This document shows positions 13,284 through 49,796 of a stretch of 64,000 nt of DNA, piece after piece. Location of the stretch: assembly GCF_057098645.1 (NCBI RefSeq), contig NZ_CM169472.1; one strand, written 5' to 3'. Made by a program: the position numbers and the translations under genes. Under the pieces are notes generated by a model, which had not been told where the DNA came from, searched no databases, and saw only the letters and a program-made list of their open reading frames with translations. How positions within the stretch are numbered: the stretch's first letter is position 1; each line of letters starts with the position of its first letter.

Positions 13284-14930
13284 TTATTTCACACAGCGGG
13301 TGCATTGTGTGAGTTGTATCTGCTGGAAGAAGTCATTTCCTTTATCATCCACAAGGATAAACGCCGGGAAATCTTCCACTTCAATTTTCCAGATGGCTTC
13401 CATTCCCAGTTCCGGATATTCAACACATTCCAGGCTCTTAATACTTCCCTGCGCCAATACAGCGGCCGGACCACCGATACTGCCAAGGTAGAAGCCGCCG
13501 TGTTTTTTACAGGCATCCGTCACCTGCTGGCTGCGGTTGCCTTTCGCCAGCATGATCATACTTCCGCCCTGCGCTTGCAGTTGATCGACATAAGAATCCA
13601 TCCGTCCGGCGGTCGTTGGGCCAAGAGAACCGGAGGCATAACCTTCCGGCGTTTTGGCCGGACCCGCGTAGTAAATCGGATGATCTTTAATGTACTGCGG
13701 CAGCCCTTCACCGTTATCCATCCGCTCTTTCAGTTTGGCGTGAGCAATATCACGACCAACGATAATCGTGCCGTTAAGCGATAAGCGTGTAGAAACGGGA
13801 TACTGCGACAACTGTGCGAGGATCTCTTTCATCGGACGGTTAAGGTCAACGCGCACCGCTTCGCCTTCTCCCGCTTTGCGCAGCTCTTCCGGGATATATT
13901 TGCCTGGATTATGTTCCAGTTTTTCGATCCAGATCCCCTGACGGTTGATCTTCGCTTTGATATTACGGTCAGCAGAGCAGGAGACGCCCATACCGACCGG
14001 GCAGGATGCGCCGTGACGTGGCAGGCGAATCACGCGGATGTCGTGAGCGAAGTATTTACCACCAAACTGCGCACCCAGACCAAGATTTTGCGCTTCGATC
14101 AGCAATTCTTTTTCCAGTTCCACATCGCGGAACGCCTGACCGTGCTCATTCCCTTCCGTTGGCAGTTCATCATAGTATTTCGCGGAAGCCAGTTTCACCG
14201 TTTTAAGGTTCGTTTCTGCAGAAGTTCCACCAATAACGAACGCAATATGATACGGAGGACAGGCCGCCGTACCCAGCGTGCGCATCTTCTCAACCAAGTA
14301 ATTTTTCAGTTTCCCCGGCGTCAGTAACGCTTTGGTTTCCTGATAGAGATACGTCTTGTTTGCCGAACCACCACCTTTGGCGATACAGAGGAATTTGTAT
14401 TCGTCGCCATCAACGGCATAAAGATCGATCTGCGCTGGCAGATTGGTGCCGGTATTCACTTCTTTATACATATCCAGCGGCGCGTTTTGCGAGTAGCGCA
14501 GATTATCTTCGATATAAGTGTTATAGACACCGCGCGCCAGCGCCGCTTCATCACCACCACCGGTCCATACACGCTGCCCTTTTTTACCAACAATAATCGC
14601 GGTGCCGGTATCCTGACAGGTTGGCAGAACGCCTTTCGCCGCGATGTCGGAGTTACGCAGGAATTGCAGCGCCACATATTTATCATTTTCGCTGGCCTCC
14701 GGGTCACGCAGAATGTCGGCCACCTGTTGTTGGTGAGCCGGACGCAGCATAAACGACGCATCATGAAACGCCTGACGCGCCAACAGAGTTAACGCTTCGG
14801 GTGCGACTTTCAAAATCTCCTGCCCTTCAAATTCAGATACGCTAACGTGTTCGCTGGTTAGCAGGTAATACTCAGTATCATCTTTTTTGAGTGGAAAAGG
14901 AGCCTGATAATGAAAGGGTTTGTTTGACAT
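13284..14930 (-). CDS. fumA: Fumarate hydratase class I (Fe-S dependent)
   Basis: 548-aa ORF; synteny with fumC and manA. Confidence 0.93.
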
Positions 14931-38504: not shown

Positions 38505-39200
38505 GTGAGCGAAATTAAAGACGTTATTGTTCAGGGGTTGTGGAAAAACAACTCTGCGCTGGTCCAGTTGCTCGGCCTTTGTCCTCTGTTGGCGGTCACG
38601 TCCACTGCCACTAACGCTCTGGGTTTAGGACTTGCGACTACGCTGGTACTGACGCTGACCAACCTGACCATTTCGACGCTGCGTCACTGGACGCCAGCCG
38701 AGATCCGCATTCCCATTTACGTGATGATCATCGCCTCGGTGGTCAGCGCTGTACAGATGCTGATCAACGCCTACGCCTTTGGCCTGTATCAATCATTAGG
38801 GATTTTTATTCCGCTGATTGTCACTAACTGTATCGTTGTGGGCCGCGCTGAAGCCTTCGCCGCCAAAAAAGGTCCGGCGCTTTCGGCACTGGACGGCTTT
38901 TCAATTGGTATGGGCGCAACCTGCGCCATGTTCGTGCTGGGTTCACTACGCGAAATTATCGGCAATGGCACATTGTTTGACGGTGCAGATGCGCTGTTAG
39001 GTAGCTGGGCAAAAGTATTACGCGTGGAGATTTTCCACACCGACTCCCCTTTCCTGCTGGCGATGCTGCCACCAGGTGCATTTATTGGCCTGGGACTGAT
39101 GCTGGCAGGAAAATACCTGATTGATGAAAGAATGAAAAAGCGCCGTACTGAAGCAGCTGCCGAACGTGCATTGCCAAACGGTGAAACAGGGAATGTCTGA
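38505..39200 (+). CDS. rsxE: Rsx/Rnf complex subunit E
   Basis: 231-aa polytopic membrane ORF. Confidence 0.92.
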
Positions 39201-39835
39201 TGAACAAAGCAAAACGCCTGGAGATCCTCACTCGCCTGCGTGAGAACAATCCTCATCCCACCACCGAGCTTAATTTCAGTTCGCCTTTTGAATTGCTGAT
39301 TGCCGTACTGCTTTCCGCTCAGGCGACCGATGTCAGTGTTAATAAGGCGACGGCGAAACTCTACCCGGTGGCGAATACGCCTGCAGCGATGCTTGAACTG
39401 GGCGTTGAAGGGGTGAAAACCTATATCAAAACGATTGGGCTTTATAACAGCAAAGCAGAAAATATCATCAAAACCTGCCGTATCTTACTGGAGCAGCATA
39501 ATGGCGAGGTTCCGGAAGATCGTGCTGCGCTTGAAGCCCTGCCCGGCGTAGGTCGTAAAACAGCCAACGTCGTATTAAACACTGCATTCGGCTGGCCGAC
39601 TATTGCTGTCGACACGCACATTTTCCGCGTTTGTAATCGTACTCAATTTGCGCCGGGGAAAAACGTCGAACAGGTAGAAGAAAAGCTACTGAAAGTGGTT
39701 CCGGCAGAGTTTAAAGTCGACTGCCACCATTGGTTGATCCTGCACGGGCGTTATACCTGCATTGCCCGCAAGCCCCGCTGTGGCTCTTGTATTATTGAAG
39801 ATCTTTGTGAATACAAAGAGAAAGTTGACATCTGA
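39200..39835 (+). CDS. nth: Endonuclease III (DNA glycosylase/AP lyase)
   Basis: 211-aa ORF with HhH motif and a C-terminal 4Fe-4S Cys cluster (CIARKPRCGSCIIEDLC); start overlaps the rsxE stop. Confidence 0.95.
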   Translation: MNKAKRLEILTRLRENNPHPTTELNFSSPFELLIAVLLSAQATDVSVNKATAKLYPVANTPAAMLELGVEGVKTYIKTIGLYNSKAENIIKTCRILLEQHNGEVPEDRAALEALPGVGRKTANVVLNTAFGWPTIAVDTHIFRVCNRTQFAPGKNVEQVEEKLLKVVPAEFKVDCHHWLILHGRYTCIARKPRCGSCIIEDLCEYKEKVDI

Positions 39836-40005
39836 AGAAAAGGGGTAACACCGATTACCCCATTGATAACCTTTCTTTATCCTCTTTTAAAACATCTTTT
39901 TAACGTCAATGATGCCATTGCTTAGCGTTATCATCAGGTAATCCGTTTGCGGATAACCAAAAATGCAGGTTAATTGTTTTTTTAATAGCGAAATTTTCTA
40001 TTCAT

Positions 40006-40023
40006 TCGTGATCAAGATCACGA
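40006..40023. promoter_or_regulatory. 18-bp palindrome TCGTGATCAAGATCACGA (CRP/FNR-like half-sites) in the nth-dtpA intergenic region
   Basis: Read directly: 8-bp inverted arms with a 2-bp spacer; contains GTGA-N6-TCAC. Confidence 0.35.
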
Positions 40024-40445
40024 TGCTGTGGCAATGTAAAAACATTGCAAGAATCAGGTTAAAATCATTTAAATTTACACACGCAACAAATATTGACCTA
40101 CAAAACATTACACTGGCTATTTTTCAGAAACTGGACTATCTCACTAGGAAAAACGCTAAATAGCAGAACATATCGCCGTCAAGCCATCATCCCCCTCTCA
40201 ATGCAGTGAAAAAATCTGCCGTTACGTTTTTTGAAAAATTTAACGCTGGATAACATTTCCCGGAATGGTTGAATTCCCCGCCTCAGTTATATGTAACAGA
40301 TTATTACAAAGGACTTGTCTGAAAGTGCAAGATAGTGAACATTACCTGCCGTTTCCCCTCCCACTATAACAATTGCGCGTATGTTTTTTAGGCATAACGC
40401 GAGAAAGCACCCCCGTTAATATGGGATGTAAAAAAAGAGGTAAAA

Positions 40446-41948
40446 GTGTCCACTGCAAACCAAAAACCAACTGAAAGCGTCAGTTTGAACGCTTTCAAAC
40501 AACCGAAGGCGTTCTATCTCATCTTCTCGATTGAGTTATGGGAACGTTTTGGTTATTACGGCCTACAAGGAATTATGGCTGTTTACCTGGTTAAACAACT
40601 GGGTATGTCTGAAGCGGATTCAATCACCCTTTTCTCTTCCTTTAGTGCCCTGGTTTATGGTCTGGTCGCTATCGGCGGCTGGTTAGGTGACAAGGTACTG
40701 GGTACTAAACGCGTAATTATGCTCGGCGCTATTGTGCTGGCGATTGGTTATGCTCTGGTTGCCTGGTCTGGTCACGACGCCGGTATCGTTTATATGGGTA
40801 TGGCGGCTATTGCGGTCGGTAACGGCCTGTTTAAAGCTAACCCGTCTTCTCTGCTTTCTACATGCTATGAGAAAAACGACCCGCGTCTGGACGGTGCATT
40901 CACCATGTACTACATGTCCGTCAACATCGGCTCTTTCTTCTCTATGATCGCCACCCCGTGGCTGGCCGCGAAATACGGCTGGAGTGTTGCGTTTGCGTTG
41001 AGCGTTGTAGGCCTGCTGATCACTATCGTTAACTTCGCCTTCTGCCAACGCTGGGTTAAACAGTACGGTTCAAAACCAGATTTCGAGCCTATCAACTACC
41101 GTAACCTGCTGCTGACCATTATTGGTGTTGTGGCACTGATCGCTATCGCCACCTGGCTGCTGCACAATCAGGAAGTTGCGCGTATGGCGCTGGGCGTTGT
41201 TGCCTTCGGTATCGTGGTGATCTTCGGTAAAGAAGCCTTCGCGATGAAAGGTGCTGCGCGTCGTAAAATGATCGTTGCCTTCATCCTGATGCTCGAAGCC
41301 ATTATCTTCTTCGTGCTGTACAGCCAGATGCCAACGTCACTGAACTTCTTTGCGATTCGTAACGTTGAACACACCATTCTGGGCCTGGCCGTAGAACCTG
41401 AGCAGTATCAGGCACTGAACCCGTTCTGGATCATCATTGGTAGCCCGATTCTGGCCGCTATCTATAACAAGATGGGCGATACCCTGCCGATGCCAACTAA
41501 GTTTGCAATCGGTATGGTGATGTGTTCTGGTGCGTTCCTGATTCTGCCGCTGGGTGCAAAATTCGCGTCTGACGCAGGTATCGTGTCTGTAAGCTGGCTG
41601 GTCGCAAGCTATGGCCTGCAGAGTATCGGGGAACTGATGATCTCTGGTCTGGGTCTGGCAATGGTTGCTCAACTCGTTCCGCAGCGTCTGATGGGCTTCA
41701 TTATGGGTAGCTGGTTCCTGACCACTGCCGGTGCAAACCTGATTGGTGGTTATGTTGCGGGTATGATGGCTGTGCCGGATAACGTTACCGATCCGCTGAT
41801 GTCACTGGAAGTCTATGGTCGCGTATTCTTGCAGATTGGTGTCGCTACTGCCGTTATTGCAGTACTGATGCTGCTGACCGCGCCGAAACTGCACCGCATG
41901 ACGCAGGATGACGCTGCAGACAAAGCGGCGAAAGCAGCCGTAGCGTAA
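40446..41948 (+). CDS. dtpA: Proton-dependent di-/tripeptide permease (POT family)
   Basis: 500-aa ORF, MFS/POT transporter; GTG start after a good RBS (aagaggtaaaa). Confidence 0.92.
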
Positions 41949-48938: not shown

Positions 48939-49796
48939 ATGTCAATTAAAACAATTAAGTATTTCTCAACAATCATTGTAGCGATAGTTGCGGTTCTTGC
49001 CGGATGGTGGTTGTGGAATTATTACATGCAATCTCCGTGGACACGCGACGGGAAAATACGCGCAGAACAGGTTTCTATCACCCCACAGGTGTCGGGACGT
49101 ATTGTTGAGCTGAATATAAAAGACAACCAGCTGGTTAACGCAGGGGATCTTCTGCTCACGATCGATAAAACGCCCTTTCAGATCGCCGAGCTGAATGCAC
49201 AGGCTCAGCTGGCGAAAGCGCAATCTGACCTCGCAAAAGCCAATAACGAAGCGAATCGTCGTCGTCATCTCTCACAAAATTTTATTTCTGCCGAAGAACT
49301 CGATACCGCTAACCTCAATGTTAAAGCGATGCAGGCCAGTGTTAATGCCGCACAGGCGACGCTGAAACAGACACAATGGCAACTGGCGCAAACGGAAATT
49401 CGCGCCCCGGTGAGTGGATGGGTGACTAACCTCACTACCCGCATCGGCGATTACGCTGACACCGGGAAACCGCTTTTTGCCCTTGTCGACAGCCACTCGT
49501 TTTACGTCATTGGTTATTTTGAAGAAACCAAGTTGCGCCATATCCGCGAAGGTGCACCAGCACAAATTACCCTCTATAGTGATAACAAAACGTTACAGGG
49601 TCACGTTTCCAGTATCGGTCGGGCGATTTATGATCAGAGCGTTGAAAGTGACTCAAGCCTTATTCCGGATGTGAAACCTAACGTCCCCTGGGTTCGTCTC
49701 GCCCAACGCGTTCCCGTCCGCTTTGCGCTGGATAAAGTTCCAGGCGATGTCACGCTGGTGTCGGGCACCACCTGTAGCATTGCCGTAGGTCAATAA
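48939..49796 (+). CDS. ydhJ: Membrane-fusion (HlyD-family) protein of a putative AaeAB-like efflux system
   Basis: ORF 48897-49796; start at the internal Met MSIKTIKYF gives 285 aa. Confidence 0.85.

Follow-up and report, generated by a model that had tools for sequence, protein, structure and literature searches.

The nth-dtpA intergenic region

This report concerns the intergenic spacer between nth and dtpA in the window, a 64,000-nucleotide stretch of contig NZ_CM169472.1 (NCBI RefSeq assembly GCF_057098645.1), and an inverted repeat within that spacer. The repeat is a binding site for the sugar-sensing regulator CRP (cAMP receptor protein), which acts with cyclic AMP (CRP-cAMP), and probably forms the distal end of the dtpA upstream control region. 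The nth gene (endonuclease III; 39200..39835, plus strand; open reading frame (ORF) and RefSeq annotation) is the last gene of the rsx-nth operon. The dtpA gene (di/tripeptide:H+ symporter; 40446..41948, plus strand; ORF and annotation) is the presumed regulated gene. The local gene order is rsxE-nth-dtpA-gstA. The spacer is 610 bp in length, between the end of nth at 39835 and the GTG start codon of dtpA at 40446. Among the 49 gaps between genes in the window's first 50 kb it is the longest, and its G+C content is 37.2%, compared with 51.1% for the whole window. The original prediction, made from the sequence of this stretch, had described the spacer as unusually long and AT-rich, and these values bear it out.

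The window is E. coli DNA. Its spacer is 100% identical to that of E. coli O145:H28 RM12761 (NZ_CP007133.1), where both flanking genes are annotated, and the 610-bp length is found in 5,422 of 5,426 complete E. coli genomes. No feature is annotated in the spacer in the 30 E. coli records listed, nor in K-12. The K-12 spacer is also 610 bp long and differs from that of the window by seven substitutions and no insertions or deletions, so K-12 coordinates can be mapped directly onto the window.

The inverted repeat is a CRP site

The inverted repeat TCGTGATCAAGATCACGA is located at 40006-40023 and consists of two 8-nucleotide arms on either side of a central AA. The position agrees with that given previously for an 18-bp palindrome. 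The palindromy is not perfect over the 18 bp, since the central AA is not self-complementary. The repeat forms the core of a near-consensus CRP-type site, ttCGTGAtcaagaTCACGatg, at 40005..40025, which has no assigned strand. The CRP consensus is the two-fold symmetric TGTGA-N6-TCACA, in which GTGA and TCAC are the critical bases. The core of the site, CGTGATCAAGATCACG at 40007-40022, reads CGTGA-N6-TCACG and matches 8 of the 10 core positions, with GTGA and TCAC complete. The only two GATC sequences of the spacer are contained in this site.

Palindromy alone is weak evidence, because 63 perfect inverted repeats (8-nucleotide arms, spacers of 0-10 nucleotides) occur in the window, compared with about 11 in shuffled sequence. 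The GTGA-N6-TCAC pattern has three copies in the 64 kb, against 0.87 expected. The remaining two exact copies, at 13740-13753 and 49422-49435, are within the fumC and ydhJ coding regions and probably represent either chance occurrences or CRP sites inside genes. The significance of the repeat comes from the motif match, the conservation across genera, and the published binding taken together.

The site itself has already been published, and it is an element of a known kind. Table 1 of a 2026 Footprint-seq preprint (PMC12871828) lists ttCGTGAtcaagaTCACGatg as a new CRP site assigned to dtpA, with the entry centred at NC_000913.3 position 1712342 and an in vitro dissociation constant (Kd) estimated at 2.1 nM for purified CRP. 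The motif centre maps to K-12 position 1712337.5, so that it and the peak centre given in the preprint are 4.5 bp apart. The original prediction of a CRP-type dimer site is thus upheld: the identical 21-mer is bound by CRP in vitro (PMC12871828), and its half-sites are conserved across genera. What the present analysis adds is the deep conservation of the site and its strict spacing over approximately 370 bp.

Conservation of the site

The dtpA locus was fetched from 80 Enterobacteriaceae species, and nth lies upstream of dtpA in all of them. Site-level conservation was counted in the 71 species for which the site could be brought into register. GTGA-N6-TCAC is present at the orthologous position with both half-sites in 50 of these 71 species, and one half-site is present in a further 10. 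The column information is 1.3-1.9 bits at the GTGA and ATCA positions, while the central two bases and the outer flanks carry 0.2-0.4 bits. Along the site, high values are found at 40008-40012 and 40016-40021, and low values at 40014-40015 and in the outer flanks. The outer bases that give E. coli its "18-bp palindrome" are not conserved. This pattern is the footprint of a dimeric protein and not that of a hairpin.

The spacer is 570-640 bp in length in 71 of the 80 species. It extends to approximately 1.06-1.19 kb in seven Kosakonia and one Enterobacter sp. (loci L045, L047, L052, L055, L056, L059, L060, and L070) and in Phytobacter (L081). In these long-spacer loci, nth is separated from the conserved dtpA upstream block by additional DNA, perhaps a gene. 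A different GTGA-N6-TCAC is present in most of them, approximately 575 bp from dtpA.

The dtpA promoter and the OmpR-bound region

The dtpA transcription start site has been mapped to K-12 position 1712673 (window position 40350), the only start site given for dtpA in the SMRT-Cappable-seq supplement (PMC6131387). The core promoter is placed at 40315..40343 (plus strand) from this start site and the invariant GATAGTGAACATTAC. It is composed of a -35 element TTGTCT (40315-40320), a 17-bp spacer, and a weak -10 element AACATT (40338-40343). This -10 assignment agrees with a published promoter mutation, an A-to-T change beside the dtpA -10 that raises dtpA mRNA approximately 23-fold (PMC7858067). 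In the same study, an expression-raising dtpA promoter mutation reached fixation in three of the four populations maintained in parallel in long-term stationary phase.

OmpR binds in vivo at 40274..40333 (no strand assigned), about -76 to -17 relative to the start site. This region corresponds to peak P11 (NC_000913.2 1710621-1710680) of a published study that used chromatin immunoprecipitation with exonuclease digestion (ChIP-exo). It is the sole proximal peak, is centred at -46.5, and is classed as activator (PMC5438342, supplement). The centring at -46.5 independently reproduces the same dtpA start site. The region contains the invariant core ATGTAACAGATTATTACAAA at 40291-40310. The OmpR motif next to the -35 is invariant in 20 genera, and together with the binding and dependence known from the literature this identifies dtpA as an OmpR-activated promoter. 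A -201..+15 dtpA fusion is OmpR-dependent, with activation at low OmpR and repression at high OmpR, a behavior called "reminiscent of ompF" (PMC5175337). OmpR control of dtpA has long been known. Textbook regulation of dtpA is by OmpR alone.

Spacing between the CRP site and the promoter

The CRP centre at 40014.5 is located 335.5 bp upstream of the dtpA start site at 40350. From 39966 onward the alignment and conservation profile consist of short conserved blocks with diverged sequence between them. Approximately 380 bp upstream of dtpA are made up of such blocks at fixed spacing, the OmpR-bound region included. All spacing counts cover the species in which both anchors were found. The CRP right half-site and the -10 anchor are 314 bp apart in 56 of 68 species and 315 bp apart in 6 of 68, E. 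coli being among the latter. On its distal side, the CRP right half-site is 50 bp from the block at 39966..39983 in 51 of 58 species. Closer to the promoter, the distance between the AGCAGAAC block and the TTTAACGC block is 74 bp (79 of 79 species), the TTTAACGC block is 56 bp from the OmpR motif (80 of 80), and the OmpR motif is 39 bp from the -10 anchor (79 of 79).

The distances outside this region vary. The -10 anchor is 110-117 bp from the start codon, and the nth stop codon is 143-210 bp from the CRP site in all but two species. The spacing is thus fixed toward the promoter and variable toward nth, which indicates that the CRP site belongs to the dtpA control region. The 326 nucleotides between the CRP site and the start site contain only one gap column in an alignment of 20 genera. 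RNAalifold, run on this interval in the same 20 genera, gives -2.5 kcal/mol and no compensated pair, and the constraint is therefore at the level of DNA and protein rather than RNA. A covarying inverted repeat in the spacer between the -35 and -10 was apparent only, and was not upheld when the 20 sequences were read. Taken at sequence level, these alignments indicate that the geometry of the dtpA upstream region is under selection. The original prediction had named the spacer as a candidate for complex dtpA regulation, and approximately 380 bp of conserved, fixed-spacing blocks fit that suggestion.

Conserved blocks of the upstream region

The distal edge of the dtpA upstream region is the block CAGGTTAAT(t/c)GTTTTTTT at 39966..39983, identified from the conservation profile and alignment. 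It is followed by a candidate Lrp site, TAGAAAATTTCGCTA, at 39986..40000 on the minus strand. This sequence has one mismatch to the Lrp consensus YAGHAWATTWTDCTR obtained by systematic evolution of ligands by exponential enrichment (SELEX) and contains an invariant TTCTA. It is the only match to that consensus with at most one mismatch in the window, where 0.65 would be expected by chance. A literature search for a link between Lrp and dtpA returned only papers on the chelator DTPA.

Immediately beyond the CRP site is a second inverted repeat, GCAATGT-AAAA-ACATTGC, at 40031..40048 (no strand assigned), found in the alignments. The orthologous sequence in most other genera is GATAAC..ATGTTAAnnnnnTGTT(G/A), alternatively written GATAAC..ATGTTAAnnnnnTGTTG, with TGTT repeats 11 bp apart. 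The Escherichia/Salmonella/Citrobacter group has diverged at the second TGTT repeat. We take these TGTT repeats to resemble an ArcA box. The main text of the ArcA chromatin immunoprecipitation paper contains no mention of dtpA. Another candidate partner is GadX, for which binding has been reported in the literature.

Four more blocks without assigned strand precede the OmpR-bound region. Three were recognized from the conservation profile and alignments: ACAAnACATTA..TTTTTCAGAA..CTAT(a/c)TCACT at 40100..40147, AATAGCAGAACATATCGCC at 40159..40177, which is 74 bp from the next anchor in 79 of 79 species, and GCAGTGAAAAAA(t/a)C at 40203..40222. The fourth, GAAAAATTTAACGCTGGATAACATTT at 40233..40258, is near-invariant and lies approximately 104 bp upstream of the start site; its distance to the OmpR motif is 56 bp (80 of 80 species). 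Its sequence appears to resemble OmpR half-sites.

The nth-dtpA spacer, known in K-12 as the nth-ydgR spacer, has been used as a "neutral" landing pad for large chromosomal insertions and genomic reporter libraries (Kuhlman & Cox 2010; MPRA preprints, bioRxiv 10.1101/207332 and 10.1101/2020.01.04.894907). Conserved dtpA regulatory DNA or leader makes up approximately 480 of its 610 bp. Insertions in the nth-ydgR spacer could disturb dtpA control or the reporter context, depending on the insertion point.

Proposed function of the CRP site

Our preferred reading, held with moderate confidence, is that the inverted repeat is a high-affinity CRP operator at the distal end of the approximately 380-bp dtpA upstream control region. 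CRP-cAMP would then add a carbon-status input to dtpA, a peptide importer. Because -335.5 is out of reach of the RNA polymerase contacts made from ordinary class I and class II sites, CRP is proposed to act from this position through DNA bending within a fixed multi-protein assembly. OmpR would be one member of the assembly and factors on the other conserved blocks would be the rest, with the Lrp-like and ArcA-like motifs as candidates. A fixed assembly geometry would explain why insertions and deletions between the blocks are not tolerated. In its most specific form, which we regard as doubtful, CRP at -335 would be part of a rigid enhanceosome-like assembly in which all inter-site distances over approximately 370 bp are under selection.

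Several points weigh against the site acting on dtpA in this way. CRP sites of class I and class II promoters are centred near -41.5, -61.5, -72.5, -82.5, or -92.5, and relative to the one mapped start site the centre found here is at -335.5, far beyond the known range of direct contact between CRP and RNA polymerase. The -201..+15 fusion does not include the CRP site and is still strongly OmpR-dependent (PMC5175337), which shows that the site is unneeded for basal activation. Neither in vivo CRP occupancy nor a CRP-dependent change in dtpA expression was found in the published supplements searched. The partner factors are motif-based guesses, and the Lrp match, given its chance expectation, is not significant alone and was set aside as stand-alone evidence. 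Both half-sites are gone, with the flanking blocks kept, in 11 of the 71 species, so the CRP input is dispensable in some lineages.

The species that have lost the CRP half-sites include Kluyvera (L021-L023, L027, L028, and L035), Pseudocitrobacter (L032 and L036), and Superficieibacter (L057). Degenerate half-sites such as CGCTGACAAGATCATG are present in these three genera, and the flanking blocks and every spacing are retained. This points to a lineage-specific loss of CRP input in these genera. A supplement on CRP ChIP-exo (Latif 2018) was also considered as evidence and was dropped. It contains rsxABCDGE-nth only in a promoter list, with coordinates that are apparently transcription-unit ends.

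Alternative explanations

The CRP site could instead serve a nearby unmapped promoter, either that of a minus-strand transcript or an upstream plus-strand promoter with a long leader, although we consider this unlikely. In the minus-strand version, the -10 would be TATTAA (39987-39982) and the start would be at approximately 39974, with CRP at about -40 in a class II position. The transcript would end at the hairpin at 39861-39842 followed by TTTTCTT, for an RNA of approximately 135 nucleotides convergent with nth. The hairpin is called as terminator-like on the minus strand only, TATTAA in E. coli is spaced from the CRP centre almost as in a class II promoter, and most CRP sites are found no more than approximately 100 bp from a start site. 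However, within its block TAATAG is the segment with the lowest conservation, the presumed body of the transcript (39862-39955) is not conserved outside Escherichia, and both the hairpin sequence and the side of its T-tract differ among genera. The CRP spacing is fixed toward dtpA and not toward nth, and the would-be long leader has no supported RNA structure. A sigma-70 promoter scan of 39700-40600 made no call on either strand. It also missed the weak but real dtpA promoter, and is therefore insensitive to activator-dependent promoters. Rfam, searched with a permissive threshold, gave nothing credible and no match near threshold in the spacer, the best being 19 bits against a gathering score of 229. 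Among plus-strand and minus-strand -10/-35 pairs at class I or class II distances from the CRP site, inspection by eye found none that is both good and conserved. SMRT-Cappable-seq gives 1712673 alone for dtpA (PMC6131387), and no extra start sites or 3' ends in the region were found in the published transcript-mapping supplements searched. The same results tell against the unannotated small RNA suggested by the original prediction, for which a promoter call, an Rfam match near threshold, conservation on the nth side, and a supported RNA structure between the CRP site and the promoter are all missing. As an Escherichia-specific feature, a minus-strand transcript is possible, the E. coli geometry being the one point in its favor.

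It is likewise improbable that CRP binds here without regulating transcription, at an "orphan" site that is either tolerated or part of chromosome architecture. The distance from the promoter and the loss of the site in some genera fit such a site, and many CRP-bound sites have no known effect (1,217 CRP-bound regions against 308 described sites; PMC12871828). Against it, many genera retain the half-sites even as the centre drifts, which implies selection for binding. The distance to the promoter is also fixed, and the site is intergenic, of high affinity, and embedded among conserved blocks. A very unlikely owner of the site is FNR or another CRP/FNR-family protein, which would give anaerobic control of dtpA and which the original prediction had offered as an alternative. 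The sequence GTGAT-CAAG-ATCAC shares 8 of 10 positions with the FNR consensus TTGAT-N4-ATCAA, and the older literature describes anaerobic induction of Salmonella tppB. That induction has, however, been reported to be independent of fnr (oxrA), and the position that discriminates CRP from FNR, 40008, is G as in CRP sites in 64 of the 71 species, A in 5, and T in only 2. Purified CRP, moreover, binds the site at approximately 2 nM (PMC12871828). Hardly tenable is the reading of the palindrome as an RNA or DNA hairpin or as part of a small protein gene, even though its 8-bp arms are perfect and a 66-amino-acid ORF with an ATG start (39963-40163) spans it in E. coli. The outer arms and centre vary without compensation, and only the CRP contact bases are kept. 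The ORF is confined to E. coli, and related genera do not preserve its frame and position: in 68 of 79 species no ATG ORF of at least 40 amino acids covers the site, and elsewhere the ends and sequence differ. No ribosome-binding site was seen by eye, and the earlier view that this ORF is unconvincing holds.

Comparison with known systems

The preferred reading, a CRP operator controlling dtpA, can be compared with three known systems. Canonical CRP operators are located close to their promoters, as at lac (-61.5) and galP1 (-41.5), within a class I and class II range of approximately -41 to -93. Like these, the dtpA site is a two-fold symmetric sequence of approximately 22 bp, with the core CGTGA-N6-TCACG in place of TGTGA-N6-TCACA, nanomolar binding in vitro, and conservation at the contact bases. 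Unlike these, it is at -335.5, and the promoter scan found no adjoining CRP-dependent promoter. The dtpA upstream element is a member of the CRP-operator family, with the motif and its conservation found here and the binding taken from the literature.

The other two comparisons are functional analogies and carry no claim of membership. The papBA pilus operon has a distal CAP site at approximately -215 that needs Lrp and the correct helical phasing. By analogy, dtpA has a single far-upstream CRP site, an adjacent Lrp-consensus-like sequence, and GATC sites, and its strictly fixed spacing would suggest a dependence on phase or distance. Unlike papBA, the dtpA locus has no partner gene of the PapI/PapB type and no GATC pair in separate Lrp sites. 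Both GATC sequences of the dtpA region are inside the CRP core, where they follow from the CRP consensus, and there is no evidence of phase variation.

At ompF, a distal OmpR site, F4 (approximately -380 to -350), loops to the proximal sites F1-F3. The dtpA region resembles this arrangement in that it is controlled by OmpR, its proximal OmpR sites abut the -35, and conserved distal blocks are located 300-380 bp upstream. The two also share activation at low OmpR and repression at high OmpR (PMC5175337). They differ in that the distal dtpA element binds CRP in vitro and not OmpR, in that the OmpR ChIP-exo peak is single and proximal (PMC5438342), and in that the repression of dtpA at high OmpR is seen with the -201..+15 fusion, which does not include the distal region (PMC5175337).

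If the rigid-assembly form of the preferred reading is correct, dtpA would be an enteric example, neither fimbrial nor phase-variable, of CRP control that acts over a long range and depends on geometry. Carbon signals (CRP) would be combined there with envelope and osmotic signals (OmpR), and possibly with amino-acid or redox signals (Lrp-like and ArcA-like). The dtpA gene is strongly induced in the mouse gut, and a conserved nanomolar CRP site would couple peptide scavenging to carbon status. To judge from the strict spacing over approximately 370 bp, the promoter may be built in a more elaborate way than current databases show.

Other features of the spacer and the dtpA leader

The nth-proximal end of the spacer contains a terminator hairpin, GGGGTAA-CACCGA-TTACCCC, identified by the terminator scan and inverted-repeat search (no strand assigned). 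A hairpin near nth had been noted previously at 39848-39870. The structure does exist, but it is located at 39842..39861, just past the nth stop codon. An A-tract is present on the 5' side of the hairpin, and the terminator scan scores it on the minus strand only (GGGG...CCCC, then TTTTCTT). A hairpin follows nth in almost all of 82 loci, with sequences that are unrelated between genera and a T-tract on varying sides. It is the fast-evolving terminator of the rsx-nth operon. The 120 bp adjoining nth cannot be aligned between genera.

The locus tags of NZ_CP007133.1 skip one number across the spacer, from ECRM12761_RS10250 (nth) to RS10260 (dtpA). The missing RS10255 may be a feature that an earlier annotation placed in the spacer and that was later withdrawn.

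The dtpA 5' untranslated region is 96 nucleotides in length (40350..40445, plus strand), as defined by the start site mapping, conservation, and a small CCCCG/GGG hairpin. This leader is highly conserved. Its 5' end, CGTTTCCCCTCC, is invariant, and its 3' end is an invariant A-rich tract and Shine-Dalgarno sequence, AAAAAAAGAGGTA, followed by the GTG start codon, which is also invariant. Between these ends are a variable hairpin region at approximately 40375-40405, in which by eye the pairing is kept with differing sequences across genera, and the conserved hairpin CCCCG-TTAATA-TGGG. RNAalifold recovered only the small second hairpin in the 5' untranslated region, with no two-sided covariation. 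Post-transcriptional control may act through this leader. In Salmonella, tppB is reported to be a target of GcvB.

Inside codons 9-18 of dtpA, at 40472-40497, is a perfect 9-bp inverted repeat, TGAAAGCGT-N8-ACGCTTTCA. The terminator scan scores it as terminator-like on the minus strand, and in the mRNA it could fold into a hairpin close to the translation initiation region.

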